A stretch of 55,934 nt of DNA from positions 434,892 to 490,825 of the forward strand of contig JAXLYJ010000005.1 in NCBI GenBank assembly GCA_046351515.1. Reading direction: 5' to 3'. Position 1 is the first letter of the stretch. Every line of letters begins with the position of its first letter. This document shows, in pieces, positions 7,521-23,835 of this stretch. A program made the position numbers and the translations under genes. The notes beneath the pieces are model-generated. The model had not been told where the DNA came from. It ran no database searches and worked only from the letters and a program-made list of their open reading frames with translations. The stretch comes from Polyangiales bacterium. GTDB lineage: Bacteria; Myxococcota_A; Polyangia; Polyangiales; Ga0077539.

Positions 7521-8663
7521 TCAGCCGTTGCCGCCGCCCGCGTCGCTGCCCGACGAGGCGCCGCAGGTGCCCGCGCCGCGCGAGGGCGCAGACATCGCCG
7601 CGGTGGTCGCGGGGACGAGCGAGAAGCCGAGGCCCACGCCGATGCCGCCGAACATGGGGTTCATCGAGCCCGGCATCGGACGGCAGATGCCGTTCTCTTC
7701 GATGTCGACGAAGCCGCCGATGATCGTGGCCGCTTGCATCGCGAAGTCCGGCGCGAGGCTCTGGATCGCGGTGAGGAGCTGGCTGCCGTTGAACGAGCCG
7801 CCGAGGTTTCCGCCCGTGCCGCCGGTGGCGGTGAGGTTCACGCGGAGCTGAGCGTTGGTGAGGGTGAGCATCACCGAGCGGCCCATGATCTCGGGCAGCG
7901 GCAGCGGGAACATGCCCGGCGCCGTGACCTGCAGACGTCCGCCGACGATGCGGCCGGGGAACTGGATCTTCGCCGACTCGATGTCCGACGCGGTGTTGAG
8001 CGAGTCCGCCGCGATCGCGTACTCGCGCATCGGCTGCACGCTGTCGCAGCCGGTCGTGAACGTGGGGTAGCCGTTGTAGACCTTGACCGTCACTTCGTTG
8101 TCGTCGGTGAGGCTGTTGACGCCGGTCACGCGCACGACGAGCGAGATCTTGTTCTGGTTGATCTGGCTGGTGAGCTCGCTGCGGATGCCCATCGGGAACG
8201 AGCTGCTCGCAGCGGCCTCGATCGCGTCGAGGATGCCCGGCAGCTGGTTGTCGACGCCGCCGCGGCAGCCCGCGCCCGGAGCGCAGCGCATGTTCATGCC
8301 GCACGCGCCGGTCGCCATGTTCCATCCGCCCATGGGGCAGTTCTGGTCCTGGTCGAGCATCGAGGGCGAGTCGGGACGATCACACGAGCGAGGGGTGTCC
8401 GGCAGCGAGCCTTCGCTGTTCACCGAGTAGATGTTGTCGAGGTTGAAGCCGGTGATCGCCGAGTTCGAGTCGAGCGGAACAGGGCTCACCGTGAGCTCGC
8501 TGATCACGTACGTGTACGTCATGCCCGGACCGCCGCCGCCGCCGTCCGTCGGCGTGCTCGAGTCCGGGTTGTTGCCGCCGTCGGGATTGTTGACGGGGCC
8601 TCCACAGCCCACGAGGCCGATAAGAGCGCCAGCAGTCGCGAGGGTGAGAAGTCGCTTGGTCAT
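7521..8663 (-). CDS. Hypothetical lipoprotein (Gly/Met-rich, Cys-containing)
   Basis: Internal ATG gives MTKRLLTLATAGALIGLVGC|GG (SPase II lipobox). AGGAG-like RBS read about 8 nt upstream. Coherent coding composition. Confidence 0.7.
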   Translation of the reverse strand: MTKRLLTLATAGALIGLVGCGGPVNNPDGGNNPDSSTPTDGGGGGPGMTYTYVISELTVSPVPLDSNSAITGFNLDNIYSVNSEGSLPDTPRSCDRPDSPSMLDQDQNCPMGGWNMATGACGMNMRCAPGAGCRGGVDNQLPGILDAIEAAASSSFPMGIRSELTSQINQNKISLVVRVTGVNSLTDDNEVTVKVYNGYPTFTTGCDSVQPMREYAIAADSLNTASDIESAKIQFPGRIVGGRLQVTAPGMFPLPLPEIMGRSVMLTLTNAQLRVNLTATGGTGGNLGGSFNGSQLLTAIQSLAPDFAMQAATIIGGFVDIEENGICRPMPGSMNPMFGGIGVGLGFSLVPATTAAMSAPSRGAGTCGASSGSDAGGGNG

Positions 8664-8982
8664 GTACGGAACTCCTGAGTCGAGCGGTGCTCGTCGAGCG
8701 AAACGTAGAGGTGTGCGCAAAGCGCGAGGCGTCGCTTAGGTACCACCGGAAAAAATCGCGCTCAAGCGCTTCTCGTGCGCTCAGTGTGCGACAGGACACG
8801 GATGTCAGGGCGGCCCGCGCTCGGACTCGCGCCTCGACGCGGTGCGCCGCGCGCGCTGAATCACCGTTCATTCTCGGGCGGGACCGCGCTCGATCGCTGG
8901 AGCTCTGCGTCGGTGCGCGCGGTGAGTTCTGTCGCTTTCGTGATCGCGCCGGGGTCTCCGTGCTACCCGCGATGAACCCCCC

Positions 8983-11900
8983 ATGGCGGACTTCGCTCAT
9001 CTGCACGTGCACTCGCAGTACTCCATGCTCGACGGCGCGATTCGAGTGAAAGACCTCGTGAAGCGCACCGCTGAGCTCGGCATGAAGGCCGTCGCGCTCA
9101 CCGATCACAACAACATGCACGGCGCCATCGACTTCTACAAAAAGGCGAAAGAAGTCGGCGTAAAACCGCTGCTCGGGTGCGAGCTCGGGTTTCTGTTTCC
9201 GGGGCAAGAGAAGAAGCTCGACGCCAAGGGGCTCGATCGAACGCCCGCGCATCACATGGTCTGCATCGCCCGCAACATGACGGGCTACAAGAACTTGATC
9301 GCGCTCGTATCGAAGGCCTGGGTCGACACTCCGTCGCACCTCGAGCCGCGCGTGACGCTCGAAGACCTCGCGGCCAAGCGCGACGGAATCATCGTGCTCA
9401 CCGGCTGCCTCGGAGGGCTCGTCCCGCAGTCGGTGCTGCAGTTCTCGCCGAAGGCGGGCGCGGACCTTCTCGCGAACCTGCGCGACGTCGTCGAGAAGGA
9501 CATGCTCTTCGTCGAGCTGCAAAATCACGGGCTCTACGAGCAGCCGATCGTCAACGAGATCTTGATCAACGCCGCGAAGGACCTCGGCTTGCCCTTCGTC
9601 GCCACCAACGATTGCCACTACCTCAAGCGCGACGACTCCATCGCAGGAAAGCTCCTCGGCTGCATCGCCGGAGGCATGACCCTCGACGACTACAACCGCA
9701 CCGATCACGGCTCGACCGAGATGTACTTGAAGAGCCCGGACGAGATGTTCGAGGCCTTCAAAGACTTTCCTGACGCCGTGAAGAACACGATGGGCGTGCT
9801 CGAGCGGTTGGAGCACGTGGACCCCACGCACAAGCCCATGTTGCCGAAGTACCGCGACGAGGTCGGCAACGTCGTCGACAACGTCGATGACTACTTTCGC
9901 GAGCTCTCTCGCGCGGGTCTTCAGAAGCGCTTCGACGGCTTCAAGAAGATCGGCAAGAAGGTCGACGAGCAGGCGTACCGCGATCGACTCGAGATCGAGG
10001 TCAACGTCATCAACAAGATGGGGTTTCCTGGGTACTTCTTGATCGTCCAGGACTTCATCAATTGGTCCAAGGCCAACGGAATCCCCGTCGGTCCGGGCCG
10101 CGGCTCCGGCGCGGGTTCGCTCGTCGCGTACTCGCTCGGCATCACCGACCTCGATCCGCTTCCGTACAACCTCCTCTTCGAGCGCTTCTTGAACCCCGAG
10201 CGCGTGTCCATGCCGGACTTCGACGTGGACTTCTGCATGCTCAAGCGCGAGCGCTCGATCCAGTACGTCCGAGAGAAATACGGGACGCTCTCGGTCGGTC
10301 AGATCGCGACGTTTCAGCTCTTGAAGAGCAAGAGCGTCGTGCGCGACGTCGGACGCGCGCTCGGAATGCCGTTCAGCGAAGTCGACGCGGTCGCCAAGCT
10401 CGTTCCCGATCCCGTGCAAGGGAAGAACGTCTCGATCGCCGAGGCCATGGAGCAAGAGCCCAGGCTCAAGGCCATGTACCAAGAAGGCGGCAGCACGAAA
10501 GAGCTGCTCGACCTCGCGCAGAAGGTCGAGAACATGAACCGCCACGCCGGCATGCACGCCGCCGGCATCGTGATCTCCGAAGGACCGTTGTGGGAGACCG
10601 TTCCGGTCTTCAAGGGCTCGTCGGGCGAGCTCGTCACGCAGTACGCGAAAGAAGAGGTCGAATACGCGGGGCTCGTGAAGTTCGACTTTCTCGGGCTCAC
10701 GACGCTCACGGTGCTCGACATCGCGGTCGCGCTCATCAACAAGCGGCCCGACATCGTCGCGTCGGGCCAGGGCTTCGATCACAACACGATCCCCGTCGAC
10801 GTGAAGGACGTGCCCGAGTCGAACCCCGATCTCAAGCGCAAGGTCGCAGAGACGTACGAGCTGCTGCAGAGCGGTGAGACCACGGGCGTGTTTCAGCTCG
10901 AATCGACGGGCATGCAGAAGCTCTTCAAAGACCTTCGGCCCAAGCGCTTCGAAGACATCGTCGCCGCCGTGGCGCTCTACCGTCCGGGCCCGCTCGGGAC
11001 GGGAATGGTCGAAGACTTCGTCAACCGCGTGAACGGCCGCGCCAAGACCGAGTACCCGCACCCCGACCTCGAAGACATCCTCCAAGACACGTACGGCGTC
11101 ATCACGTACCAGGAGCAAGTGATGATGATCGCCCGCAAAATGGGCGGTTATTCGCTGGGCGGCGCCGACATGCTCCGCCGCGCCATGGGCAAGAAGAAGC
11201 CCGAGGAGATGGCCAAGCAGAAGAGCATCTTCGTCGATGGCGCGAAGAAGAACGGCTACGACGAGGCCACCGCGGTTCGCATCTTCGATCTGCTCGAGTA
11301 CTTCGCGGGCTACGGCTTCAACAAGAGCCACTCTGCGGCGTACGCGCTGATCACCTATCAAACCGCGTTTCTCAAGGCGCACTACCCCGCGGAGTTCTGC
11401 TGCGGGACGCTCACGAGCGACCTCGGCAAGATCGACAAGCTCGTCGGCACGATCGCAGAAGCGCGCTCGTTGGGCATTCCGGTGCTTCCACCGGACGTCA
11501 ACGAATCGCAGCGCGAGTTCGCTGTCATCTACGACGAGCGCCCGCGCAAAGTGAACCCGAAGGCCAAGCTGCGCGCCGAGCGCGACCCGTGGCGTCCTCG
11601 CATTCGCATCGGGCTCGGCGGCGTTCGCGGCGTGGGCGACGGCGCGGTGGACGCGATCCTCGAGCAGCGCGCGAGCGGAGGGCCGTTTCAAGACCTCTTC
11701 GACTTCTGCGCGCGCGTGGACATGCGACGGGTGAACAAGGCGGTGGTCGAGGCGCTCGTGCAATCGGGCGCGTTCGACCAGAGCCTCGAGCGCGTGGGCG
11801 CGACGAGGGCGCAGGCCTTTCACGCGATCGACCAGGCGATCGAGCGCGGAAAAGGCGTGGCGAAAGAGCGCGCCTCGGGCCAGATGGGCTTGTTCGCGGT

Positions 11901-12681
11901 GACCGAGATCGTCGCGCCGAGCGCGGGCTATCCCGAGCTCAAGCCCGAGGACACGTGGGACAGCGCGGATCAGCTCAAGCGCGAGCGGTCGTACCTCGGG
12001 TTTTATCTCTCGGGGCACCCGCTCGATCGCTTTCAAGAAGAGGTCAAGCGCGTGTCCAACTGCGCGGTGTCCGAGCTTCCGACGCGACGGCACAACGACG
12101 AGGTCTCGCTCGTGGGGGTGGTCGAGGGCTATCGCGAGAAGCCCATCAAGACCGGAGGACGCATGGCGTTCTTCATGCTCGAGGACAAGAGCGGCCGCGT
12201 CGAGGTGATCGTGCGCGCGCGCACGCTGCAAGAGATCACGGACACGCTGAAGCTCGACAGCAAGCAGACGCTCGACACGGTGCTCTTCAAGCCCGGCGAA
12301 GCGGTGCTCGTGAACGGAAAGGTTCAAGTCGAGATCAAGCGCGACGAGAACGGCGAGATCGCCGAGGACCAGGGCGACGAAGAGCCCGAGCGCAAGGTGA
12401 CGCTGCTCTCAGCGACGCTCTTGTCCGAGGCGCTGAAGAACCGCGCGCGCGAGGTGCACCTGCGCCTCGATCCCACGGTCGCCACCGAGACGAGGCTCGC
12501 CGCGCTGAAAAAAGCGCTCAGCGAACACAGCGGAAAGATCCCGGTGCGAGCGTTTCTCGCGCTGCCCGACGGCGCGACGGTCACCGTGCTGCTTCCTCGC
12601 GATCTGTGCGTCGATCCCGGCGAAGCGTTCATGTCGCGGGTCGAGAAGATCTTCGGTCAGAAGGTAGCAGAGCTCCGGTAG
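8983..12681 (+). CDS. dnaE: DNA polymerase III alpha subunit
   Basis: PHP domain MADFAHLHVHSQYSMLDGA…LTDHNNMHG. Polymerase core and OB-fold regions throughout. 1232 aa. Confidence 0.97.
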   Translation: MADFAHLHVHSQYSMLDGAIRVKDLVKRTAELGMKAVALTDHNNMHGAIDFYKKAKEVGVKPLLGCELGFLFPGQEKKLDAKGLDRTPAHHMVCIARNMTGYKNLIALVSKAWVDTPSHLEPRVTLEDLAAKRDGIIVLTGCLGGLVPQSVLQFSPKAGADLLANLRDVVEKDMLFVELQNHGLYEQPIVNEILINAAKDLGLPFVATNDCHYLKRDDSIAGKLLGCIAGGMTLDDYNRTDHGSTEMYLKSPDEMFEAFKDFPDAVKNTMGVLERLEHVDPTHKPMLPKYRDEVGNVVDNVDDYFRELSRAGLQKRFDGFKKIGKKVDEQAYRDRLEIEVNVINKMGFPGYFLIVQDFINWSKANGIPVGPGRGSGAGSLVAYSLGITDLDPLPYNLLFERFLNPERVSMPDFDVDFCMLKRERSIQYVREKYGTLSVGQIATFQLLKSKSVVRDVGRALGMPFSEVDAVAKLVPDPVQGKNVSIAEAMEQEPRLKAMYQEGGSTKELLDLAQKVENMNRHAGMHAAGIVISEGPLWETVPVFKGSSGELVTQYAKEEVEYAGLVKFDFLGLTTLTVLDIAVALINKRPDIVASGQGFDHNTIPVDVKDVPESNPDLKRKVAETYELLQSGETTGVFQLESTGMQKLFKDLRPKRFEDIVAAVALYRPGPLGTGMVEDFVNRVNGRAKTEYPHPDLEDILQDTYGVITYQEQVMMIARKMGGYSLGGADMLRRAMGKKKPEEMAKQKSIFVDGAKKNGYDEATAVRIFDLLEYFAGYGFNKSHSAAYALITYQTAFLKAHYPAEFCCGTLTSDLGKIDKLVGTIAEARSLGIPVLPPDVNESQREFAVIYDERPRKVNPKAKLRAERDPWRPRIRIGLGGVRGVGDGAVDAILEQRASGGPFQDLFDFCARVDMRRVNKAVVEALVQSGAFDQSLERVGATRAQAFHAIDQAIERGKGVAKERASGQMGLFAVTEIVAPSAGYPELKPEDTWDSADQLKRERSYLGFYLSGHPLDRFQEEVKRVSNCAVSELPTRRHNDEVSLVGVVEGYREKPIKTGGRMAFFMLEDKSGRVEVIVRARTLQEITDTLKLDSKQTLDTVLFKPGEAVLVNGKVQVEIKRDENGEIAEDQGDEEPERKVTLLSATLLSEALKNRAREVHLRLDPTVATETRLAALKKALSEHSGKIPVRAFLALPDGATVTVLLPRDLCVDPGEAFMSRVEKIFGQKVAELR

Positions 12682-12743
12682 CAGACGCATTCGGGTGCTT
12701 GTGATCGCGCGTCGTTCGGGGTTAGACAGGATGGGTCGCCTCG

Positions 12744-13892
12744 ATGAGCACCACGCGCACCTGCACTGTTTGTGGCAAGGGCTTCGAGCCCCGCCTGCGC
12801 TTCCAGGTCGAAGAGAGTGAGGGTCGCGTTCGATACTTCTGTTCGCAGAAGTGTCAGCAAGCCTCGATGCTCGCCGGCGAGGGCGAGGGCGGCGTCCGCT
12901 GCTCGACCTGTGACAGCGAGTTTCGCCCTGAATTTGCCTGGCAAGTGAGCATCACCGACAGCGGGCGAAGGTACTTCTGCACGCAGGACTGCAAGGCCAA
13001 GGCGCCCGTGCCGACCGCCGCCGCAACGGGGCCCAAGCGCATCGCGGTCTTCAACCACAAGGGCGGCACTGGCAAGACCACCACGGCGGTGTCCGTCGCC
13101 TCGGGCCTCGCTGAAGCAGGCAAGCGCGTGCTGCTGGTGGACGTCGACGCGCAGGGCAACGTCGGCGTCTCGCTCGGCGTTCGCGGTGAGCGCACGCTCT
13201 ATCACGTCCTCGTGCTCGGCACCGATCCGCGCGAGGCGGCCATTCCGGTGACGGACAAGCTCGACGTGATCACCAGCAACGAGTCGCTCGCGGCGGCGGA
13301 GCTGTACCTCGCGGGCAGGCCGCACCGCGATCGCATTCTGCGCGAGCGAATGCTGGGCGCGGACGCGTACGACTACATCATCCTCGACTGCTCGCCGTCC
13401 CTCTCGCTGCTCAATCAAAACGCGCTGGTGTACGCGGACAACGTGCTCGTCCCGGTCTCGTGCGACTACCTCTCGCTCGTCGGAGTGAAGCAGGTGATCA
13501 AGACGCTGCGCGACGTCTACGAGCACTTGAAGCACCCGGTGCAGATCCTCGGGGTGATCCCGACGATGTACGACTCGCGCCACAAGATCGGTCGCGAGGT
13601 GATCGAGACGTTGCAGCAGAAGTTCGGCGAGCTGTGCTTTCCGCCGGTGCGCGCGAACATCAAGCTCCGCGAGGCGCCCGCGTCGCGGCAGTCGATCTTC
13701 GAGTACGCCTCGGACTCGTCGGGCGCCGAGGACTATCGCGCGGTCGTGCAGCGGGTGATCGCGCTCACCAGCCCGCAGAAGAAGCGCAAGAGCGCCGCGC
13801 CCGTCACGCCTGGCAAGGGAGTCACCAAGCCCGCGGCGACGCCTGAGCGCGGCGTGACCGTCGCGAGCGCCGATCGCGGAGTCTCGCAGTGA
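12744..13892 (+). CDS. ParA/MinD-family ATPase with an N-terminal tandem C4 zinc-ribbon (MJ0042-like CxxC…CxxxC x2) domain
   Basis: Deviant Walker A KGGTGKTT. ParA-like Walker A', Walker B and other motifs (LLVDVDAQGN, ILDCSPSLS). Two CxxC-(n)-CxxxC units in the first about 90 aa. Basic C-terminal tail. Confidence 0.85.
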   Translation: MSTTRTCTVCGKGFEPRLRFQVEESEGRVRYFCSQKCQQASMLAGEGEGGVRCSTCDSEFRPEFAWQVSITDSGRRYFCTQDCKAKAPVPTAAATGPKRIAVFNHKGGTGKTTTAVSVASGLAEAGKRVLLVDVDAQGNVGVSLGVRGERTLYHVLVLGTDPREAAIPVTDKLDVITSNESLAAAELYLAGRPHRDRILRERMLGADAYDYIILDCSPSLSLLNQNALVYADNVLVPVSCDYLSLVGVKQVIKTLRDVYEHLKHPVQILGVIPTMYDSRHKIGREVIETLQQKFGELCFPPVRANIKLREAPASRQSIFEYASDSSGAEDYRAVVQRVIALTSPQKKRKSAAPVTPGKGVTKPAATPERGVTVASADRGVSQ

Positions 13893-14284
13893 GCACGTCC
13901 TCTCGCAGAAAGCCCGCGCCCGTGCGCGAGGTGCTCGAGAGCGACGACGTGCGCAACATCCTCCGTGACGGCTTCTTCTCGACGGTGCCAGACGCGCCCA
14001 ACGACCACGAAGACGCGCTCGAGGACGAGCCCGCGATCGAGGCGAGCGGCCGGCGCTCGCTGACCACCGCGCAGCGCGCGAAGAAGAGCTCGAAGAAGGC
14101 GGCCAAAGAGCGGCCCGATCACTACAAGGTGATCTGCATCTCGCTCTACAACGACGACCTCGCGCTGCTCGATCGCGTCGTCAAAGAGCTGAAGAAGCGG
14201 GGATTTACCAAGGCCAATCGCTCGGCGGTCCTGCGCGCGGCGATGCAGCAGTTCGACCCGAGCAAGGTCGCCAAGGGGCTCTGA
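13889..14284 (+). CDS. Ribbon-helix-helix (CopG/ParG-like) protein, translationally coupled to the ParA-like gene (GTGA overlap)
   Basis: C-terminal RHH signature HYKVICISLYNDDLALLDRVVKELKKRGFTKANRSAVLRAAMQQF. Basic/acidic disordered N-terminus. Start overlaps the upstream stop by 4 nt. Confidence 0.7.
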   Translation: MSTSSRRKPAPVREVLESDDVRNILRDGFFSTVPDAPNDHEDALEDEPAIEASGRRSLTTAQRAKKSSKKAAKERPDHYKVICISLYNDDLALLDRVVKELKKRGFTKANRSAVLRAAMQQFDPSKVAKGL

Positions 14285-14335: not shown

Positions 14336-15121
14336 TCAGTCGATGCCGGCGACGTGGACGATCAGCGCGGTGATGTTGTCGGGGCCGCCGTTTTCGTTGG
14401 CCCGGCCGATGAGCTTCGAGCACGCCGTCTTGTAGTCGCCGTGGTGGTCTTCGATGATCTGCAGGATGTCCTCGTCCGAGACGGGGCCGCACAGACCGTC
14501 GGAGCAGAGCATGAACACGTCGCCCACGCGCGGAGACTCGAGCCTCGTGTCCACCTTGACGGTGTCCTTCATGCCGAGCGCTCGCACGATCACGTTTTTG
14601 TGCGGAAAGTTCGCGATCTCTTCCGCCGAGAGCTTGCGCATCTTCAGGTAGTCGTTGAGCAGCGAGTGGTCCTCGGTCATCTGCTCGATCTGGTGATCGC
14701 GCACGCGATACACGCGCGAGTCGCCGACGTGCGCGATGTAGATCCCCTCGCGCGTCCCGATGACGGTGACGACCGTGGTGCCCATACCGCGGTAGCGCGG
14801 CTCGCGCTGCGAACACTCGTAGATGCGGAGGTTCGCCAGCTTGATCGCGGTGACGAGACGGTTCTCTTCGTACCCGCGGTGCTTGTCCATCTTGTACGGC
14901 CACGTCGCGTCCGGGTCCTTCGACGTGGCGTCGAAGAACTCGCGCATCGAGTCGACCGCCATCTTCGAGGCGACCTCACCCGAGGCGTGCCCGCCCATGC
15001 CGTCCGCAACGACGACGAGGTTTTCGTCCGCAAAAATCGCGTACGAATCCTCGTTGTGCGTGCGCTTCATCCCGACGTTGGTCTCGCCGGCAAATTCGAG
15101 ACGCACGACTCCGTTCGCCAC
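14336..15121 (-). CDS. PP2C-family Ser/Thr protein phosphatase
   Basis: Motifs FADENLVVVADGMGGHASGEVAS, HVGDSRVY, DGLCGPVSDED, GGPDNITALIV. 261 aa. Confidence 0.9.
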   Translation of the reverse strand: MANGVVRLEFAGETNVGMKRTHNEDSYAIFADENLVVVADGMGGHASGEVASKMAVDSMREFFDATSKDPDATWPYKMDKHRGYEENRLVTAIKLANLRIYECSQREPRYRGMGTTVVTVIGTREGIYIAHVGDSRVYRVRDHQIEQMTEDHSLLNDYLKMRKLSAEEIANFPHKNVIVRALGMKDTVKVDTRLESPRVGDVFMLCSDGLCGPVSDEDILQIIEDHHGDYKTACSKLIGRANENGGPDNITALIVHVAGID

Positions 15122-15339
15122 AGTGCTCTACCTCTCGCTGATCGTGATTCGTGTCGCGCCGCCATCGTGACGGCGCTCGACGTTCGGTGAATGCTGCCGA
15201 GGACGGGCCGCAGAGTCAATCAAAGCGTGAGGGGCCTTGTCCGCATACCCGAACGGCGGGCGCCGCGTGGTTCGCCGCAGCCTCGACGAGTCCAGCGTCG
15301 AGAGCGATCTCGATCGCAGCCGGTCTGGCGACGCTCGGG

Positions 15340-18300
15340 TCAGGCGCTTCGGGCGCGTTCGATCCTCGCGCGCAGCCATTGCGGGTCGACAGGACCGGCG
15401 CCCTCGTGCTCGAGGGCGAGCAGCGCGGCCCGCAGCGGGGCGTGTCCGCGGTGCAGTCCGCGAGCAAAAAAGCCGCTCAACGCCCGTTCGGCGTCGGCCT
15501 CTGAGCTCCACCGCTGCGCAGGCGCGAGCAGCGTCCAGTCGACCCACAGAACCCGCGCCCGTCCGTCGCGTCCTCCCGTGGCCGCCACACGACCGCACGG
15601 CGTCAACGCGACATCGTGCACGAAGGTCTCGTGTCCGCCGAGCGCGAAGGGCCGCTCGCGATCGACGTCCCAGACGCGCACCTGACCGGCGGCGTCGACG
15701 GCGACGAGCACTTTTCCGTCGCGTGAAATCGAGACGCCTGTGACCACGGCCCCTTGCGGAAGCACCGCCACGGGCTCGAGCGTCGCGAGGGCGTAGACCC
15801 GCGCTGTTCCGTCGCGCAGGCCCACGGCGGCGAAGCGCCCGTCCGTCGTGCACACGACATCGAGCGCGTTGGAAGCGTTTGGCAGCGCGCCGATCGGTCT
15901 CAGCTCGCTGTCGTGCACGGTGGTCGGACCGTTGAGCCTCGCCACCAGCAACGAGTCCGTCTCGCTCACGATCGCCGCCCGCGAGACGTGCGCGATCGCG
16001 TGCGCCCGCGAAGCGCCCGCGATGGTGTGCAGCTCGATCGCGTCCTGCCCCACCAGCGCCACTCGGCGCGCGGTCGGGTCCGTCGCGAGCCTCCGCGTCA
16101 CGATCGCCGTCGGCGCGCTCGCCACCAGGGCGCCGGTGATCGGCTCGCGCCACTCGAGCACCGCGCCGCGCGCGATGGCCAGGAGCCCGCCGCACGGCGC
16201 GACTTGAAAAGTGCGCACGGATTCAGCGAGCCTGAGCTCGGACAGCACGCGTCCGCTGCGGGTCTCGATCGCCAGCACTCGGGTGTCGCCCGTGGTGACG
16301 TAGAGAATTTCTCCGTCCGGCGAAAGTTCGACCGTGTGCGCCGCGCCCGCGACCGCTTCGAAGCTCGCGCCCGTCCACGCGCCGCGCAGCGCGCCCCGAC
16401 CGCACACCGCCGAGAGCCTGCGCCACGACCGACGCACGGCAGGCGAGCGAGCGTAGCCTTCGACGCTCTCTGCCGCTTCGAGCGCTCGCACCGCGTCGGA
16501 CCAGCGCTGCTCGTGCGTCGCGCGCTCGCAGCGCTCGAGCGCGTCCGCGAGGGACTCTTCGCGCGCGAAGGCCTCTTCGCTCGTCGTGGGGCGAAGGATC
16601 GGCGCCGCCGCTCGAACGCCTCGGCGCTCAGTGGAGAACACGTCGATGGTCCCCGCGCGAACGACGGCGATCCGAGGCCGGTCCGCCGCCGCTGCGAGCG
16701 CGATCGGTCGCTCGGCGATCGACGATCGCTCGGTGCGAACACAGCGATGCTCTCCCAAGCTCCACAGCCGCATCGCGCCTTCGGACGAGAGCGCGACCGC
16801 GAGCTGGGCGTCGCTCGTGGTGATCAACGCGCGAGGCGGAGAAGGGTCGCGCAGCGTCGCGACGCGCTCGAAGTCCTTCGTGCGCCACACGGCGATCGCG
16901 CCCCGCGCTCCCGCTTCGTCCAAGCCGCCGACGAGCAGCGCGCGGCCATCGGTCGAAAACGCAAGGCTCTCGGGCTCGCGGGTGAGCGCGAGGTGCGAGC
17001 GGCGCTCCATCGTTCGACCATCGAACAGCTGCACGCCGTGGGCGTGTCCGACGGCGACGAGCGCTCCGTGCGGGGCGACCGCGAGCGCGCTCACCTTCGC
17101 GTTGACCGTCGCGGTGCGCTCGGCGCCGGTGCCCGCTTCGATCAGCGTGAGCGTCGTGCGCTCGCCCTCGATGGACGCGACGACGAGCTCGGCCGTGGGC
17201 GCGAAGCTCGCGCAATCGTACGTCCCCTGCCGCGCGAGATGCGCTCCTTGGCTCGAGGCGTGAACGAGCGATCGATCCGTCACCACCCACACTGAGCCAT
17301 CGCGACCGGTCCGCATCGCGCGAACGACGCCGTCGATCGACCACTCGCCGCGCAGCGAACCGTCGCTCGTCGCAAAGACCCTCAGCCACGATGAGCCTTC
17401 GGCGGTCGGACCGCTCGCCGCGAGCACCTCTCCGTCCCGCGAGAGCGCGGCGATCGACGCGGCCGCCGGCGTCTCCGCTGTGCAGACATGCGCGAGCGAA
17501 TCGCGAAGCGCTGGGCTCACGCGCGCGACGGCGGCGATCGCCTCGGGTGAGCTCGCTCCGAGCGAGCTGACCTCGGACAGGGCCGCTCGCGCGTCGATCA
17601 GGTCGCCGCGCTCTGCGTGCAGCGAAGCCGCGAGCAGCGCTGACTCCCACGAGGGCTCGCGCATCGCGCGCGCCTCGCTCAACGCGCGGACCGCTTCGTC
17701 GTCCGTGCATTCTCCGCGTCGCCAGCGCAGCAGCGAGCGCGCGAAGGTGGCTTGGGGGTGCGTCGGATCCGAGCGAAGGGCCTCGTCGAAGAGCACGAGC
17801 GCGAGGTCGGGCTCTTCGAGGTCGAGCTTGGAAGCGCCTCGGTTGTAGAGCGCGTCCGCTGGCGAGCGACGGACGCGCGTGGTGTCCGCGATGTGCCCGC
17901 CGCAGTGCCTCGCGAAGATCGCGCGCACTTCGTCGGCGGCGGCCTCGAGCGTGTTGGGCCTGGCGCTCTGCCGAGGCGCGAAGCACCGCTCGAGCAGCGC
18001 CGCGAGCTCTTGGGGAATCACCGGGATGTGCGGCAACGGCGGCCCTTCGAGCAGCAGCTGCGCGAGCGCGTCGGGCGCGGCGGGGCCCGACATCCATGTG
18101 AGCGCTCCGGTGAACATCTCGAGCACCGTCGCGGCCCACGAGAACAAGTCCGTGCGGCGAGTGATGGCCACCTGCGTGCCTTGCGAGGCCGCGAGCTGCT
18201 CGGGCGAGGCGTACGCGGGAGTCATGCCCGAGAAGCGAACGATGAGCGTCCCGTCATTGGTGGGCCGCGGACCGTTTTGCGTCGGGGCGTGCGCGGCGCG

Positions 18301-19038
18301 CGCGAGGCCGAAGTCCGTCACCTTGGCGATGAAATCGTGGGTGAGCAGGACGTTGGCGGGTTTGACGTCCTGGTGGACGAGCCCTCGCTCGTGCGCGTGG
18401 TGCAGCCCGCGCGCAGACTGCATCGCGATCGCGAGCATGCGGGCGAGGGGCGCGTCGCACTGATAGAGCTTTCCGCTGCGAATCGCCTGCTGAAGTGAGC
18501 CGCCGTCGACAAACTCTGCGAACAGCCACGGAACGCCGTCGCGCACCCGCGTGTAGTAGCAAGTCGTGACGAACGGATGCAGCCCGAGCCCGCTCCACGC
18601 TTCTGCCTCGCGCACCACGGTCTTCTTCGCTCGCTCGTCGAGCGCGCTCTTTCGAGGGACCTTCACCGCGAGGTCGATCCCCCAGCCGCGGTGAAACACA
18701 CGGTACACCCGCCCCATCCCGCCCTCGCCGAGCAGCGTGCGCGGCTCGTACAGATCCCAGTCCGAAGGGATCTCGGAGGGAGGCTCGGCCGCGGAGTGTG
18801 AAGGCTCCGCCGCTGGCTGCGCTCTGCCGTCCCGCTGCGCGTACGCCCGTCGCGCCTCTTCGAAGATCGCGCCGTTGTTGACCTGCTCGAGCGCGAGCGC
18901 CGCGTTGATCGCCTCGACCTCTCGATCGATGCGCCCGCGATCCGCCGTGGCCGAGCGCGCGCGCGCTTCGAGCTCGTCCCTTCGCGTGAGCAACGCGACG
19001 ATGCGCTGAATGTCCGGTGAGTCTCGGTTGCTTCCCAT
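15340..19038 (-). CDS. Ser/Thr protein kinase (1233 aa) with helical/TPR-like middle region and C-terminal WD40/beta-propeller repeats
   Basis: Hanks kinase domain (GEGGMGRVYRV…VKV…HRDVKPANVLL…DFGLA…) starting at internal ATG (MGSNRDSP). Long repeat region with …VRVWDV… and …RLWSL… type beta-propeller blades. The Arg-rich N-terminal 394 aa of the tracked ORF is antisense to the neighbouring kinase gene and is rejected. Confidence 0.85.
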   Translation of the reverse strand: MGSNRDSPDIQRIVALLTRRDELEARARSATADRGRIDREVEAINAALALEQVNNGAIFEEARRAYAQRDGRAQPAAEPSHSAAEPPSEIPSDWDLYEPRTLLGEGGMGRVYRVFHRGWGIDLAVKVPRKSALDERAKKTVVREAEAWSGLGLHPFVTTCYYTRVRDGVPWLFAEFVDGGSLQQAIRSGKLYQCDAPLARMLAIAMQSARGLHHAHERGLVHQDVKPANVLLTHDFIAKVTDFGLARAAHAPTQNGPRPTNDGTLIVRFSGMTPAYASPEQLAASQGTQVAITRRTDLFSWAATVLEMFTGALTWMSGPAAPDALAQLLLEGPPLPHIPVIPQELAALLERCFAPRQSARPNTLEAAADEVRAIFARHCGGHIADTTRVRRSPADALYNRGASKLDLEEPDLALVLFDEALRSDPTHPQATFARSLLRWRRGECTDDEAVRALSEARAMREPSWESALLAASLHAERGDLIDARAALSEVSSLGASSPEAIAAVARVSPALRDSLAHVCTAETPAAASIAALSRDGEVLAASGPTAEGSSWLRVFATSDGSLRGEWSIDGVVRAMRTGRDGSVWVVTDRSLVHASSQGAHLARQGTYDCASFAPTAELVVASIEGERTTLTLIEAGTGAERTATVNAKVSALAVAPHGALVAVGHAHGVQLFDGRTMERRSHLALTREPESLAFSTDGRALLVGGLDEAGARGAIAVWRTKDFERVATLRDPSPPRALITTSDAQLAVALSSEGAMRLWSLGEHRCVRTERSSIAERPIALAAAADRPRIAVVRAGTIDVFSTERRGVRAAAPILRPTTSEEAFAREESLADALERCERATHEQRWSDAVRALEAAESVEGYARSPAVRRSWRRLSAVCGRGALRGAWTGASFEAVAGAAHTVELSPDGEILYVTTGDTRVLAIETRSGRVLSELRLAESVRTFQVAPCGGLLAIARGAVLEWREPITGALVASAPTAIVTRRLATDPTARRVALVGQDAIELHTIAGASRAHAIAHVSRAAIVSETDSLLVARLNGPTTVHDSELRPIGALPNASNALDVVCTTDGRFAAVGLRDGTARVYALATLEPVAVLPQGAVVTGVSISRDGKVLVAVDAAGQVRVWDVDRERPFALGGHETFVHDVALTPCGRVAATGGRDGRARVLWVDWTLLAPAQRWSSEADAERALSGFFARGLHRGHAPLRAALLALEHEGAGPVDPQWLRARIERARSA

Positions 19039-19089
19039 CCGTGTCTCGGCCGAAGCGACGGTATCATCGAGCGACGAGGACCGCGCTGA
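19039..19089. promoter_or_regulatory. 51-bp head-to-head intergenic region between two divergent Ser/Thr kinase genes. The promoters and 5'-UTRs must overlap.
   Basis: Start codons at 19038 (minus strand) and 19090 (plus strand) by residue counting. Confidence 0.5.
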
Positions 19090-20490
19090 ATGTCCAAGGT
19101 GATCATCGACGCGATCGACGGGCCGATGGCCGGCAAACGCTGGGAGTTCGTCGAGCCCGACGCGTGGGTCGTGGGACGTAGCCCCGACTGCCACGCGCAG
19201 CTCGACGTATCCGACGCGACCGTCTCGCGTCATCACATGCTGCTCGAAGTGCGTCCGCCCGAGGTGCGCGTGCGGGACCTTGGCTCGCGCAACGGAACGT
19301 TCGTCAACGACAAGAAGATCGGAGGGCGCGCGCGGGGCGAGAGCGCCGAGTCTGGGCGCAAACGGCTGTTTCCTGAGCGCGAGGTCGAGCACGGCGACGA
19401 GCTGCGCGTGGGGGCCAATCGATTTCGCGTGCGGATCGAGGGCGCGAGCGACGAGCACCGGACGATCCTTCGATGTCAGCGCTGCTCGGCAGAGCTCGAG
19501 CGGTGGGTCCATCGCTCGTCGGTCGCGGTGCTGTGCGACGAGTGCGTCGCGCGTGAAGCGATGGACCCGATCGCGCTGCTCGAGCGCGCGATCGAGCAGC
19601 GCGGGCTCGGTCCGAGCGACACGAGCGTCGAGCTCGCCGCGCCCACGCTCGACGGAGAGCGAAAGACCGCCCCTCCGACGGTCGAGGGGCTCACGGTGCT
19701 TCGCAAGCTGGGCGAGGGCGGCACCGGCGCTGTCTACGAAGCGCGCGACGAGCGCGGCCGCTCGTTCGCCGTCAAGGTCCTGCTCTCGCGCGTCGCGGTC
19801 GACAGCGGGATGCGCGCGATGTTCGTGCGCGAGATCGAAGCGCTCGGCGAGCTCGACCACGAGCGCATCGTGCGGCTCGTCCGGGCTGGCTCGAGCGGGT
19901 CGTCGTTTTACTTCGTGATGGAGATGTGCGCGGGCGGAAGCCTCGCCGCGCTCGTTGGAAAGTCGGGCAAGCCGCTGCCCGCTTCGCGCGCGGTCGCGAT
20001 CCTGTGCGACGCGCTCGAGGGGCTGGCGTACGCGCACGCGCGGGGCCTCGTCCATCGCGACGTGAAGCCCGGCAACATCCTCATCGACGCCGACGGCCGC
20101 GGAAAGATCAGCGACTTCGGCCTCGCCAAGAGCTTCGAGCGCGCGGGGCTCTCGGGCTTCACGATGACCGGGTCTTTTGCAGGCACGTTCGAGTTCATGC
20201 CGCGCGAGCAGCTGACGCACTACCGCGACGTGCGTCCGTCGAGCGATGTGTTCTCGGCGGGCGCGACGCTCTACTGGGCGCTCACGCGAAAGACGCCGAT
20301 CGATTTCAGCGCGGATGAGGATCGAATCACGACGCTGCTGCAGCGCGCGCCATCGCCGATCTCGACTCGCTTGGTGGGGCTGAACCCAGCGCTGTGCGCG
20401 GTCGTCGATCGAGCGTGCGCGCTCGAGCCGAGCGATCGCTATCCTGACGCGGGCGCGCTGCTCTCGGCGCTGCGCGAGATCAACCTGTAA
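19090..20490 (+). CDS. FHA-domain Ser/Thr protein kinase
   Basis: N-terminal FHA (VVGRSPDCHAQLDVSDATVSRHHMLLEV…RDLGSRNGTFVN). C-terminal Hanks kinase (GEGGTGAVYEA…HRDVKPGNILI…DFGLAK). Confidence 0.9.
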   Translation: MSKVIIDAIDGPMAGKRWEFVEPDAWVVGRSPDCHAQLDVSDATVSRHHMLLEVRPPEVRVRDLGSRNGTFVNDKKIGGRARGESAESGRKRLFPEREVEHGDELRVGANRFRVRIEGASDEHRTILRCQRCSAELERWVHRSSVAVLCDECVAREAMDPIALLERAIEQRGLGPSDTSVELAAPTLDGERKTAPPTVEGLTVLRKLGEGGTGAVYEARDERGRSFAVKVLLSRVAVDSGMRAMFVREIEALGELDHERIVRLVRAGSSGSSFYFVMEMCAGGSLAALVGKSGKPLPASRAVAILCDALEGLAYAHARGLVHRDVKPGNILIDADGRGKISDFGLAKSFERAGLSGFTMTGSFAGTFEFMPREQLTHYRDVRPSSDVFSAGATLYWALTRKTPIDFSADEDRITTLLQRAPSPISTRLVGLNPALCAVVDRACALEPSDRYPDAGALLSALREINL

Positions 20491-20491
20491 T

Positions 20492-22825
20492 TTACCAGTG
20501 AATTGCGATTTCGCCGTCGCGCGCGTCGACGGTGATGCGGGCCTTCGCCGGGATCTTGCGCTCGACCTTCGCGCGCGAGAGGGGCTGAATCACGCAGCGC
20601 TCGACGATCCGGTCGAGCTCTCGCGCGCCGAGCTCTTCGCGCCGCTCTTGCGCGAGCAGCACACGCACGGCCTGCTCGGTGACGACGAGCTCGTGGCCCT
20701 GCGTCGAGAGCTGCTCGACCAGCGGCTGAATCAGCTTGCGCACGACGCCGTCGAGCTGCGCTTCGCCGAGGGCGACGAACTCGACGACGGCGCTGATTCG
20801 ACCGATGAGCTCGGGGCGAAACACGCCCGCGAGCGCGTCGCGCAGCTGCGCGTCCGATCGCGCGGAGATCGGCTTTCCCTCGTCTTGCACGCCGAAGCCC
20901 ACGCGCCGATGCGGTGCCGCGGCGCGCGCGATGGCGTTGCTGGTCATCACGATGAAGGCGTTGGTGAAGTCTCCCACGCGGCCGTGCGAGTCGGTGAGGC
21001 GGCCTTCGTCGAACAGCTGCAAGAACACGTCGGTGACTTGCGGATCGGCCTTCTCGATCTCGTCGAAGAGAACGACGCTGTACGGATTGCGGCGGATCGC
21101 GTTGACGAGCTGCCCGCCCTCGTCGTGCCCCACGTAGCCCGGCGGCGCGCCGAGCAGTCGCTGCACCGTGTGGCGGTCGTGAAACTCGCTCATGTCGAAG
21201 CGAATCAGCGCCTTGTCGTCGCCGAAGAGCAGCTCGGCCAGCGCCTTTGCGAGCTCGGTCTTGCCGACGCCCGTGGGGCCGAGGAAGAGAAGAACCGCCC
21301 GCGGCTTGCCTGGGCGAACGAGGCCCGCGGCCGAGGCGCGCACCGCGTTGCCGACGACCGAGAGCGCAGCCTCTTGTCCGAGCACGCGACGACGAAGAAA
21401 CGCTTCGGCGTTCGAGAGTTGCTCCTGCTGCTCTTCAGCCATCGTCGCGACCGGAACGCCGGTCCACTCCTCGACCACCCGCGCGATGTCCTCGCGTCGA
21501 AGCATCGTCGGCTGCGTGGCGTTTTCTCCGCGCGGAGAAAACGTCACGAATCGCCGCGCCGAGCTCGCCTGATCGACCAGGTCGCGCGCCTTGTCCGGCA
21601 GGCGCCGATCGGGCAAGTAGCGAACCGACAGCTCGACCGCGGCGTCGATGGCCTCGTCACTGATCGCGATGTCGTGGTGCGCTTCGAGCCCGGCGCGCGC
21701 GGCGCGTAGCATCGTCCGCGCTTGATCGGGCGTCGGCTCTTCGACGCGCACGGGCTGAAACCTCCGCGAGAGCGCGGGGTCCTTTTCGATTCGCTCGCGA
21801 AACTCTTCGGGCGTGGTCGCGCCGATGCATCGCAGGTCGCCGCGCGCGAGCGCGGGCTTGAGCAAATTGGCGGCGTCGACTCCGCCTGCGGTCGCGCCAG
21901 CGCCGACCACGGTGTGCAGCTCGTCGATGAACAAGACCACGTTGGGATCGGCCGCCGCGGCGCGAACGATCGTGTCGATCCGCTCTTCGAAGTCTCCGCG
22001 ATACTTGGTCCCCGAGAGGACCGCGGCGAGCGAGAGCTCGATGATGCGCAGCGAGCGCACTTCTTCGGGAGCGTCGTCGCGCGCGCACTTCTGCGCGAGC
22101 CCCTCGACGATCGCGGTCTTGCCGACGCCCGCCTCGCCGACGAGCACCGCGTTGGACTTGCTCTTTCGCAGCAGGATTCGCGCGACGAGCTTGATCTCTT
22201 CGTCGCGGCCCACGACGGGGTCGAGCTTGTGCGAGCGCCCGAGCGCGCTGAGGTCGCGACCGTACTTCTCGAGCGGTCCCTGCGTGGCCGGAGGCGCCGA
22301 CGCGACGCGCGGTCGAAGCATCTCGCCGACGACGCTCGAGCCCTCCGCGATCGTCCCCTTCGCTTCGCGCTCTTCGCTCGAGCTTCGCGCGGGGCGCGCG
22401 CGCTCGGTGAGGTTCTCGATGCGGTCGACCAGGACCGAAGGGCTCACGCCGGCCTCGCGCAGGACCAGCTCGACGATGCGGTCGCCGACGCCGATCAGCG
22501 CCGCGGTGACGCCTTCGATGGACAGGGATTTTCCTGCTCGTTCGGCGCGGGTCCGCGCGTGCTCGAGCGCCGCGCGCGCCGCGACGCTGGTGCCCACGGG
22601 GCTCTCGTTGCCCGTGCTCCCGTTGGTGCCCGCGAAGCAGAGAGCGCGAGCGCGTCGGCGGGCCCGAACCGGGTCGATGCCGAGCGAGGTCATGGCGCGA
22701 ACGAGCGTCGGAGGCTCGAGCTTGCACGCAGCGATGAACAGGTGCGCGACTTCGACGCATCCTGCTCCTGCGCGTCGCGCCTCTCCAACGGCGACGTTCA
22801 TGAGCGTGTCCAGCGACGGTTCCAC
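20492..22825 (-). CDS. ClpA/ClpC-like AAA+ chaperone ATPase (two Clp_N repeats, NBD1, NBD2)
   Basis: Clp_N repeats. NBD1 GEAGVGKT + DELH. NBD2 GPTGVGKTELAKALA + sensor motifs. Start placed at in-frame GTG just before LDTLMNVAVGEAR. The upstream Arg-rich part of the tracked ORF is rejected. Confidence 0.85.
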   Translation of the reverse strand: MEPSLDTLMNVAVGEARRAGAGCVEVAHLFIAACKLEPPTLVRAMTSLGIDPVRARRRARALCFAGTNGSTGNESPVGTSVAARAALEHARTRAERAGKSLSIEGVTAALIGVGDRIVELVLREAGVSPSVLVDRIENLTERARPARSSSEEREAKGTIAEGSSVVGEMLRPRVASAPPATQGPLEKYGRDLSALGRSHKLDPVVGRDEEIKLVARILLRKSKSNAVLVGEAGVGKTAIVEGLAQKCARDDAPEEVRSLRIIELSLAAVLSGTKYRGDFEERIDTIVRAAAADPNVVLFIDELHTVVGAGATAGGVDAANLLKPALARGDLRCIGATTPEEFRERIEKDPALSRRFQPVRVEEPTPDQARTMLRAARAGLEAHHDIAISDEAIDAAVELSVRYLPDRRLPDKARDLVDQASSARRFVTFSPRGENATQPTMLRREDIARVVEEWTGVPVATMAEEQQEQLSNAEAFLRRRVLGQEAALSVVGNAVRASAAGLVRPGKPRAVLLFLGPTGVGKTELAKALAELLFGDDKALIRFDMSEFHDRHTVQRLLGAPPGYVGHDEGGQLVNAIRRNPYSVVLFDEIEKADPQVTDVFLQLFDEGRLTDSHGRVGDFTNAFIVMTSNAIARAAAPHRRVGFGVQDEGKPISARSDAQLRDALAGVFRPELIGRISAVVEFVALGEAQLDGVVRKLIQPLVEQLSTQGHELVVTEQAVRVLLAQERREELGARELDRIVERCVIQPLSRAKVERKIPAKARITVDARDGEIAIHW

Positions 22826-22890
22826 TACGCGAAGAGCGTAGCGCAGCGAGGTCCGTCTGTGATCTCCACCCGAACGCGTGTCATACCAAG

Positions 22891-23835
22891 TCAGCGCAAA
22901 AACGACTCGATCGCCTGCGCGACTTCTGAAGGCTTTTCGACGAACGGCAAGTGACCCGCGCCCTGCACTTCCACGAAGCGTCCGTGCGCGACGGTGTCGG
23001 CGATCTCGCGTGACTCGGACGGAAGAAACGTGCGGTCCTGCGCCCCGCTCAGCACCAGCGTCGCGGCGCGGACGTCGCGCGCGACCCGGCGGCCGTCCCA
23101 GCTGAGCAATTGCACGAGAAAATGCTCGTCTGCCGAAGGTCGATAGCGCACCGACCGAGTGATCGTCTCGAGGGTGGTCGCGCTCGGAGGGCTCGCCCAC
23201 CAAAGCGGCCCCAGCGCGCGAAACAGCTGCGAAAGCTGCCGCGGATCGCGCAGCGTCCCTTGCGGAGTGGTGAGCGCGCGCAGCGCGGCTGCGCCCGATT
23301 CACCGAGCGCCTCGCGCGTTCGCGCGCCGATCGACCGGATCTGCACGCCGTCTCGGACGGGCGCGATCAGCACGAGCCTGCGCACCTGATCGGGGTGCGC
23401 CGCGGCGAACTCGAGCGCCACGGCGGCGCCGAAATCATGGGCGATCACGTCGATCGGAGCGCGCGGAGACAGCCGCGTCGCGAGCATCGAGAGGTCGCCG
23501 GACGCAGCCGCGAGCGTGTAGCCACCGGCGTCCGGCGGAGCGTCGCTCCGCCCGTGCCCTCGCAGATCGACGTACACGAGTCGCGCGCGCGGAGTCGCCA
23601 GCGCGTCGAGCGACGGGCGCAAGTAGTTGTGATCGAGCCCCGGACCGCCGTGAAGGACCAGTCGAACGGACCCATCGACCGCGCCGAGCTGAACGGTCTC
23701 GAGCGTCACAGCTCCGACCCGAACGCGCTCGGTGACCGTGCGCGTCGCCGAGCCGCTCGTGCTCGGTTTGCACGCCGCGAGTGACGCGAGCGCGAGGCAT
23801 GTCCAGAGGGCTGCGACTCGACACCGGCGACGCAC
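22891..23835 (-). CDS. Alpha/beta-hydrolase-fold lipoprotein
   Basis: GTG start gives (M)RRRCRVAALWTCLALASLAAC|K lipoprotein signal. HGGPG oxyanion motif. Nucleophile-elbow-like AHDFGAA. C-terminal GAGHLPFVE His motif. Upstream part of tracked ORF is Arg-rich junk. Confidence 0.75.
   Translation of the reverse strand: MRRRCRVAALWTCLALASLAACKPSTSGSATRTVTERVRVGAVTLETVQLGAVDGSVRLVLHGGPGLDHNYLRPSLDALATPRARLVYVDLRGHGRSDAPPDAGGYTLAAASGDLSMLATRLSPRAPIDVIAHDFGAAVALEFAAAHPDQVRRLVLIAPVRDGVQIRSIGARTREALGESGAAALRALTTPQGTLRDPRQLSQLFRALGPLWWASPPSATTLETITRSVRYRPSADEHFLVQLLSWDGRRVARDVRAATLVLSGAQDRTFLPSESREIADTVAHGRFVEVQGAGHLPFVEKPSEVAQAIESFLR

Follow-up and report, generated by a model that had tools for sequence, protein, structure and literature searches.

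A zinc-ribbon ParA-like ATPase and its small partner protein form a conserved chromosomal gene pair in polyangial myxobacteria

A ParA-like ATPase gene overlaps a small partner gene downstream of dnaE

We analyzed a 55,934-nt stretch of the genome of a Polyangiales bacterium (GenBank assembly GCA_046351515.1, contig JAXLYJ010000005.1, positions 434,892 to 490,825), hereafter called the window, and focused on two overlapping genes directly downstream of dnaE. The first gene encodes a ParA-like ATPase with two predicted zinc ribbons at its N-terminus, and the second encodes a small protein that we refer to as the partner. The features of the locus are as follows (window coordinates; aa, amino acids).

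8983..12681, + strand: dnaE, DNA polymerase III alpha subunit (Pfam PHP, DNA_pol3_alpha, finger and HHH_6); upstream context, outside the module
12698..12728, + strand: promoter-like footprint in the dnaE-parA gap (CTTGTG at 12698-12703, a spacer of about 18 nt, TAGACA at 12723-12728)
12744..13892, + strand: zinc-ribbon ParA-like ATPase gene, 382 aa, assigned from its open reading frame (ORF) and profile matches
12762..12854, + strand: predicted zinc ribbon 1, aa 7-37, C7-x2-C10-x22-C33-x3-C37, TRASH/zf-FCS type
12900..12992, + strand: predicted zinc ribbon 2, aa 53-83, C53-x2-C56-x22-C79-x3-C83, tandem duplicate of ribbon 1
13035..13766, + strand: Soj-like ATPase domain, aa 98-341 (Pfam AAA_31, 3.6e-48; CbiA)
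13059-13082, + strand: Walker A, KGGTGKTT, aa 106-113
aa 132-139, + strand: VDVDAQGN, the D-x-D-x-QG motif
aa 213-219, + strand: Walker B, ILDCSPS
aa 276-279, + strand: YDSR, the [YF]D-x-R motif
13767..13889, + strand: Lys/Pro-rich variable C-terminal tail of the ATPase, aa 342-382, without conservation among homologues
13889..14284, + strand: partner gene, 131 aa, GTG start; N-terminal motif, disordered middle and C-terminal core resembling a ribbon-helix-helix (RHH) domain
13931..13978, + strand: partner N-terminal motif VLESDDVRNILRDGFF, aa 15-30, proposed ParA-docking/activating peptide
14114..14254, + strand: partner conserved core, aa 76-122, P-x-HYKVICISxY ... LKxRGFTKANRSAVLRAA, strand-helix-helix pattern

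Both ORFs are present as the preliminary description of this DNA had stated, and the TGA stop of parA and the GTG start of the partner overlap in the sequence GTGA at 13889-13892. The distance of 62 nt from the end of dnaE (12681) to the ATG of parA (12744) is also as described. The GTGA overlap is restricted to the three closest loci (L001-L003). At other loci the tblastn match of the partner mostly begins 14 to about 350 nt after the ParA stop, and at three of them (L007, L019 and L079) the ParA-frame ORF extends beyond the start of that match. Searches of the window for a tRNA, an Rfam match, a second ParA or a ParB (CTPase/helix-turn-helix) gene found none, and no parS site was found there even with two mismatches allowed. 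The 131-aa downstream protein has no Pfam or NCBIfam ParB match.

The ATPase domain keeps the motifs of a Soj-type motor

The assignment of the first protein to the ParA/MinD ATPases, originally made from the motif KGGTGKTT, was confirmed by profiles and motifs. AAA_31 matched with 164.3 bits (cut-off 27) and CbiA with 81.4 bits (cut-off 25.4). The deviant Walker A sequence NHKGGTGKTT (aa 104-113) contains K106 and K111 (ParA/MinD signature lysine). We compared the domain with its top 120 homologues, and the motifs KGGxGK[ST]T, D-x-D-x-QG, Walker B and [YF]D-x-R were each present in all 120. The arginine of [YF]D-x-R aligns with the DNA-binding arginine of Soj, which we take to be R189 of the Bacillus subtilis protein. 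Against close relatives, the ratio of nonsynonymous to synonymous substitution rates (dN/dS) of the ATPase was 0.10-0.15.

The best solved relative in the PDB was Thermus thermophilus Soj (1wcv, E 4e-49), followed by 8ray, 4pfs and Helicobacter pylori Soj. ParF was absent among the PDB matches at E<=1e-10, and McdA matched weakly (E about 4e-12). None of the NCBIfam equivalog cut-offs was reached, with ParA_partition (NF041546) scoring 86.5 bits against a cut-off of 180, and the defence-system and phage family libraries returned only generic P-loop/ParA-like matches. Because all Soj-type motifs and the position of the DNA-binding arginine are kept, the domain looks like an active, dimerizing and nucleoid-binding motor of the Soj type.

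Tandem zinc ribbons precede the ATPase domain

Both N-terminal units fit the pattern C-x2-C-x3-F-x6-Q-x11-C-x3-C with identical internal spacing. In an alignment of 29 sequences, C7, C10, F14, Q21, C33 and C37 were invariant in ribbon 1, as were C53, C56, F60, Q67, C79 and C83 in ribbon 2. The earlier observation that the protein carries two CxxC…CxxxC units absent from canonical Soj thus holds, with all eight cysteines invariant across the family. Both ribbons were retained in 113 of the top 120 homologues, the exceptions being mostly truncated at the N-terminus, so the motif is not due to chance. A repeat at the DNA level (D4) is the trace of the ribbon duplication.

The Pfam family zf-FCS (PF06467) matched aa 4-37 with a score of 23.1 against a gathering cut-off of 22.4, and weaker matches were obtained with L24e, YHS and related small zinc-ribbon families. 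The spacing C-x2-C-x22-C-x3-C lies inside the TRASH signature C-x2-C-x19-22-C-x3-C. An AlphaFold (AF2) model of the ribbon module had a mean predicted local distance difference test (pLDDT) score of 78. Its best Foldseek match was archaeal L24e (probability 0.99, about 33% identity over 46 residues, E 0.03), and it also matched the TRASH domain of ZMYM5. By sequence, the two units are predicted zinc ribbons of the TRASH/zf-FCS (L24e-like) type.

A profile of the tandem module found only 223 relatives among 1.84 billion representative proteins. The best 150 of these 223 include at least 53 ParA fusions and 65 proteins shorter than 200 aa, many of which are N-terminal fragments of ParA fusions. 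Weaker relatives of the module are YHS/TRASH proteins, eukaryotic MYM fingers and phage HNH proteins. No fusion of a TRASH/zf-FCS unit to a ParA ATPase is described in the searchable literature or the family libraries.

Together with a short linker, the module occupies about 95-97 aa ahead of the ATPase domain. Across related loci the linker between ribbons and ATPase is 21 to 420 residues long, and it is Pro/Ala-rich in Sorangium and Labilithrix. Such a highly variable length argues that the ribbons act independently, as a tethered module. At two loci, in Sorangium cellulosum So0157-2 (L045 5350-5993) and in Labilithrix luteola DSM 27648 (L069 5539-6132), the ribbons and the ATPase lie in different frames. 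Both genomes are complete and the frame change falls in the Pro/Ala-rich linker, reflecting either an assembly indel error or a genuine division of the coding sequence between two genes.

The partner joins a conserved core to an N-terminal motif

The partner belongs to no Pfam or NCBIfam family. We collected 103 homologues, and the resulting core alignment of 104 sequences has 15 invariant columns. Against close relatives, dN/dS was 0.05-0.19 in the core and 0.4-0.66 in the N-terminal half, which indicates a real gene with a fast-evolving spacer. The number of homologues and the low values in the core speak against a spurious ORF, a concern that had been raised at the outset.

The AF2 monomer model shows short N-terminal helices (aa 12-29), an extended segment (aa 78-84) and two helices (aa 85-103 and 108-121), and the strand segment stays unpaired in it. 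The order of these elements and the G-x-T...N-R-S turn are compatible with an RHH domain. Pfam RHH_1 was the commonest match of the family, at sub-threshold level, in 14 of the 104 members (best E 0.008). In an hhalign comparison the strand and helices of CopG fell into the register expected for an RHH protein (E 0.015, low probability), and ParG and Arc, compared in the same way, gave nothing. The family profile had no useful match among PDB sequences, fold searches with the monomer model were uninformative, and the defence-system and phage family libraries contained no match. We regard an RHH fold of the partner as probable. Of the earlier designation as an RHH protein, the conserved coding gene and the fitting features therefore stand, with sub-threshold support for the fold itself. 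An identity with CdbA was considered and rejected, as our profiles A1 and A3 match no CdbA PDB chain at E up to 10.

The N-terminal motif has the form (V/I)L-x-(D/G)(D/E)-x3-VL(R/S)-x2-F(F/Y), in short VL..DD...VLR..FF. It is present in all 80 partners of the genomic comparison described below, 69 of them by regular expression and 11 by eye in the printed sequences, and AF2 models it as helical (pLDDT about 78). It was not found in homologues that lack a ParA, namely the phage-context relatives. ParA partners generally use N-terminal peptides. We infer that the motif is an ATPase-docking peptide, and of all our observations its co-occurrence with ParA speaks most strongly for a role of the partner as adaptor of the ATPase.

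The homologues of the partner core without ParA and without the N-terminal motif lie at L088 6001-6231, L090 6001-6231, L087 4755-5180 and L086 5001-5249. Their contigs are phage-like, and their neighbours include genes for a PD-(D/E)XK nuclease, RuvC, RecA, a helicase and a sigma factor. These stand-alone homologues, 72-141 aa long, are found beside recombination and replication genes, and one distant homologue is solitary in a cellular context. Because short homologues sit in phage-like contigs, the core also appears to exist as a stand-alone module in likely myxophages.

The pair is conserved on polyangial chromosomes

A scan of one genome per species identified 501 loci encoding a relative of the partner, and we counted linkage in the best 80 of them. 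These include Sorangium, Labilithrix luteola and many metagenome-assembled genomes of Polyangiales or 'Myxococcales', and all named loci among them are from Polyangia. At 78 of these 80 loci the gene directly upstream of the partner encodes the zinc-ribbon ParA, and the remaining two end at a contig edge; the co-conservation that the preliminary description had proposed to check is thus clear. No conserved third gene accompanies the pair at the 80 loci, and the neighbours vary by clade. The literature held nothing relevant on a TRASH/zf-FCS ParA or on extra ParA-like proteins in Myxococcota. We conclude that the pair is a genuine module of two genes, conserved in polyangial myxobacteria and so far undescribed. 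Each part is of a known kind; the combination and the chromosomal, class-wide conservation are new.

The proximity to dnaE, which had been emphasized before, is not a general feature. dnaE lies upstream in only 13 of the 80 loci, all in one sub-clade, where dnaE identity goes down to 60%, and the 62-nt gap in the window has a promoter-like footprint of its own.

The loci sit in chromosomes of 10-16 Mb, and the pair is flanked by ordinary housekeeping genes. In ten Sorangium genomes the pair is found at 33-37% of the record length, a steady position that points to vertical inheritance. No record among the PLSDB plasmids and INPHARED phages matched the partner or the zinc-ribbon region. Together with the purifying selection on both genes, these results do not support the earlier suggestion of a recruited plasmid partition pair.

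Several neighbouring genes were also seen. Downstream of the pair in the window is a signalling cluster (14336-23299), and upstream of dnaE is one further gene:

14336-15121, - strand: PP2C phosphatase, the start of the cluster adjoining the pair
within ORF 15340-20220, - strand: Ser/Thr kinase with WD40 propellers
19090-20490, + strand: Ser/Thr kinase with an FHA domain
20492-23299, - strand: ClpB-like double-AAA ATPase
7521-8720, - strand: 399-aa protein upstream of dnaE, no Pfam match

The true start of the minus-strand ORF 15340-20220 is probably further downstream, because its 5' part overlaps the FHA-kinase gene. PP2C adjoins the pair only among the closest relatives. The 399-aa protein has a hydrophobic N-terminal stretch ending in GC that by eye resembles a lipoprotein signal, and its gene is kept in the same 13 dnaE-linked loci and in L008. 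At L028 (2256-3095) and 20 other loci of the Labilithrix/Polyangiaceae type, a conserved gene lies about 2-3 kb upstream of the pair. It encodes a basic protein whose C-terminal part resembles sigma-70 region 4 by eye. The start of another protein, P0369 (847 aa), resembles this L028-type protein, and P0369 bears one TRASH-like unit at the C-terminal end.

Promoter-like blocks lie upstream of parA

In five loci whose ParA proteins are 80-92% identical, the CTTGTG and TAGA(C/T) blocks of the dnaE-parA gap are invariant. A consensus sigma-70 scan of the window did not call the footprint at 12698-12728. A motif search upstream of parA at 45 non-redundant loci showed enrichment of an A-tract with TTGGCC(C) behind it. 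This element recurs in most clades, as in the Labilithrix-group example CACTTATTTGGCCC, and in the clade of the window the CTTGTG and TAGACA blocks correspond to it. The A-tract element lies about 38 nt before the start codon in L021 and about 75 nt before it in L010. The pentamer GAAAA, counted on either strand, occurs 3.2 times per kb in the 160 nt upstream of parA versus 0.6 times per kb elsewhere in the loci. Both the blocks of the window and the A-tract with TTGGCC(C) probably represent the module's own promoter, the latter as an UP element plus a -35 box. At some loci, the spacing to the start codon points to a transcript that is leaderless or has a very short leader. A role of the A-tract/TTGGCC(C) element as an operator was rejected from its position and form.

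Sorangium loci carry a palindromic array between the two genes

The preliminary description had proposed a search for iterons around the pair. None were found flanking the genes in the window, where the repeat search gave chance-level matches only. At all ten Sorangium loci, the gap between parA and the partner gene contains a tandem array of 32-34-bp units, in 3.4-8.8 copies depending on the strain:

L040 6783-6941: array of Sorangium cellulosum So ce56 (NC_010162)
L036 6816-6936: Sorangium array
L041 6682-6931: Sorangium array
L045 6822-6942: Sorangium array
L047 6809-6929: Sorangium array
L050 6786-6935: Sorangium array
L064 6780-6926: Sorangium array
L067 6741-6935: Sorangium array
L075 6665-6929: Sorangium array
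L076 6643-6930: Sorangium array

The 33-bp unit reads GTGAAGGGACCCGCGGACGCGGGGTCCCGCTGG. Each unit contains an internal palindrome of 22-24 bp, such as GGGACCCGCG-GA-CGCGGGGTCCC; the arms vary between strains and the units stay largely self-complementary, as with GGATCCGC...GCGGGATCC in L050. The full palindrome was not found elsewhere in the fetched loci. Three observations show that the array is non-coding: strains differ in its frame with respect to the partner, the 32- and 34-bp units break the frame, and So ce56 has a stop codon ahead of the last unit. The layout is similar to that of sopC-type centromeres, and the palindromic array is a candidate centromere of these strains. Alternatively, if transcribed, it could form very stable RNA hairpins.

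Other arrays were each seen in a single lineage: tandem 37-45-bp units immediately 3' of the partner gene (L024 3462-3756), an 80 bp x 2 array downstream of the pair in So0157-2 (L045 7356-7511), and an 82 bp x 3.2 array about 550 nt upstream of parA (L038 4909-5171). Tandem repeats are common in these genomes, and these three arrays may be coincidental.

Comparison with known ParA systems

Partners in type Ib partition systems are small dimeric RHH DNA-binding proteins with a flexible N-terminal tail that activates the ATPase. The type Ib systems ParF-ParG-parH of TP228, delta-omega of pSM19035 and par2 of pB171 share with our pair the order of a ParA-family ATPase gene followed by a small partner gene, in tight operon coupling. 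The differences are several. Type Ib systems belong to plasmids or other low-copy replicons, whereas the pair is chromosomal and, among named genomes, found only in Polyangia. Their ATPases are small ParA proteins without an extra N-terminal domain, while here the ATPase is Soj-like rather than ParF-like and is preceded by the ribbon module. The partner has no detectable sequence similarity to ParG. Type Ib genes have iterated repeats beside them, and the genes in the window have none, although the Sorangium orthologues have candidate arrays. The earlier comparison with ParF/ParG is therefore apt as an architectural analogy and does not extend to the proteins, the ATPase being nearest to Soj 1wcv.

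The chromosomal Soj/ParA-Spo0J/ParB-parS (ParABS) systems provide the closest ATPases, those of T. thermophilus and H. pylori, including the position of the DNA-binding arginine. Unlike these systems, the window has neither a ParB gene nor parS, the ATPase has additional zinc ribbons, and its ParA_partition score stays far from the cut-off. ParA proteins of type Ia, such as P1 ParA and F SopA, also have an N-terminal extension of about 100 aa before the Walker domain. However, that extension is a helix-turn-helix domain that binds the operator, and the partner is a large ParB/SopB, in contrast to the TRASH ribbons and the small partner found here. As for the ribbons themselves, they share spacing and predicted fold with TRASH/zf-FCS/L24e ribbons and differ in being fused to a ParA ATPase.

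In the archaeal pairs SegA-SegB of Sulfolobus and HpaA-HpaB, a chromosomal ParA likewise precedes a small partner, which combines a disordered region, a C-terminal RHH domain and an N-terminal helix that engages the ATPase. The archaeal pairs belong to another domain of life and their ATPases lack zinc ribbons; the likeness is one of layout. In HpaAB of Haloferax volcanii, the small disordered RHH protein engages its ParA via an N-terminal helix (bioRxiv 10.1101/2025.11.19.689047).

PomZ (with PomX/PomY), which is itself myxobacterial, and McdA (with McdB) are ParA-like ATPases that bind the nucleoid and have dedicated activators, small or disordered proteins acting through N-terminal peptides. 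Unlike our pair, they have neither zinc ribbons on the ATPase nor RHH-like partners, and no conserved cargo gene lies alongside our pair. PadC, which had been listed with PomZ as an orphan ParA-like ATPase, is instead an adaptor. CdbA of Myxococcus xanthus is a small RHH nucleoid-associated protein, a cyclic di-GMP receptor, and is involved in chromosome organization (PMC7156744). It differs from the partner in its length of 67 aa and in having no N-terminal extension, and PMC7156744 mentions no ParA gene beside cdbA.

A putative ParA-adaptor module acting on the nucleoid

Our preferred reading, to which we give a probability of roughly 0.5, is that the pair is a self-contained chromosomal module of a ParA ATPase and its adaptor, type-Ib-like in layout, that acts on the nucleoid. 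The ATP-bound ATPase dimer would coat the nucleoid. The partner would dimerize via its RHH-like core, bind specific DNA, dock on the ATPase through its N-terminal motif and stimulate ATP hydrolysis. A ParA diffusion ratchet would then move or space the DNA bound by the partner, or a complex assembled on that DNA, along the nucleoid. The tandem TRASH ribbons, on their flexible linker of 21-420 aa, would tether a further ligand, either nucleic acid or protein. In Sorangium, the palindromic array between the genes is a candidate binding site; in the lineage of the window, the site would not lie beside the genes. The preliminary description had envisaged an undescribed positioning or segregation module. 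The pair is conserved and nothing in the searchable literature or family libraries describes it, and its most likely use would be to position or segregate something on the chromosome.

A more specific version, which we put forward tentatively and hold to be rather doubtful, is that Polyangia have, in addition to ParABS, a second dedicated chromosomal partition or positioning system, formed by this pair. Its components would be the zinc-ribbon ParA, an RHH-type adaptor that binds a centromere and has its own docking peptide, and lineage-specific centromere arrays, which in Sorangium would be the 32-34-bp palindromic repeats within the operon. Such a system would organize or segregate a region away from the origin, and DNA, RNA or a scaffold would be contacted a second time, in a new way, through the ribbons. 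Polyangia have, to our knowledge, the largest bacterial chromosomes.

The cargo might also not be DNA. In that case the ribbons would bind a protein complex or an organelle-like body, the nucleoid-bound ATPase would space this cargo as PomZ and McdA do, and the partner would be an autorepressor of the operon or a bridging factor. An invariant ribbon module on a linker of such variable length is what an independent tether would look like, the window has no centromere-like repeats near the genes, and fingers of the zf-FCS/MYM/FLZ type are known protein-protein modules (PMC4047054). However, there is no conserved third gene to encode a cargo, the N-terminal motif tracks the presence of ParA and so fits an adaptor better than a plain repressor, and the closest fold match of the ribbons is L24e, which binds RNA. 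We therefore consider a non-DNA cargo unlikely.

We find it still harder to credit that the pair is a regulatory switch for transcription or replication. In this reading the Soj-like ATPase would exert control as Soj does over DnaA, directed by an N-terminal module that senses zinc or redox state and by a small partner that binds DNA. The position next to dnaE would then reflect this control role. TRASH domains were first proposed as metal sensors, the ATPase is indeed Soj-like, dnaE remains directly upstream in the sub-clade of the window across considerable divergence, and PP2C phosphatase and Ser/Thr kinase genes lie downstream. Nevertheless, the links to dnaE and PP2C are missing in 67 of the 80 loci, the gap has its own promoter-like footprint, and nothing ties the pair to dnaA or oriC, nor is there a parS in the window.

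Finally, a partition cassette left behind by an integrated plasmid or prophage and now without a cellular role would explain the type Ib layout of a small ParA with a small RHH-like protein and the core homologues in phage-like contigs, but it is largely refuted and very improbable given the lack of a matching PLSDB or INPHARED record, the partner relatives in 501 species genomes, the pair in 78 of the best 80 loci, the strong purifying selection, the constant position in Sorangium and the housekeeping flanks.

Significance

ParA-family ATPases are a general bacterial means of placing chromosomes, plasmids and large complexes, and new ParA adaptors or extra domains have tended to reveal new cargo. 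The module described here is kept class-wide in myxobacteria whose genomes are exceptionally large, yet no family model covers it and we found no literature on it. It presents a new combination of a Soj-type motor, tethered tandem TRASH ribbons and an RHH-like partner with a recognizable docking motif. If the pair is indeed a second chromosomal segregation or organization system, it would be relevant to the way bacteria manage very large chromosomes.

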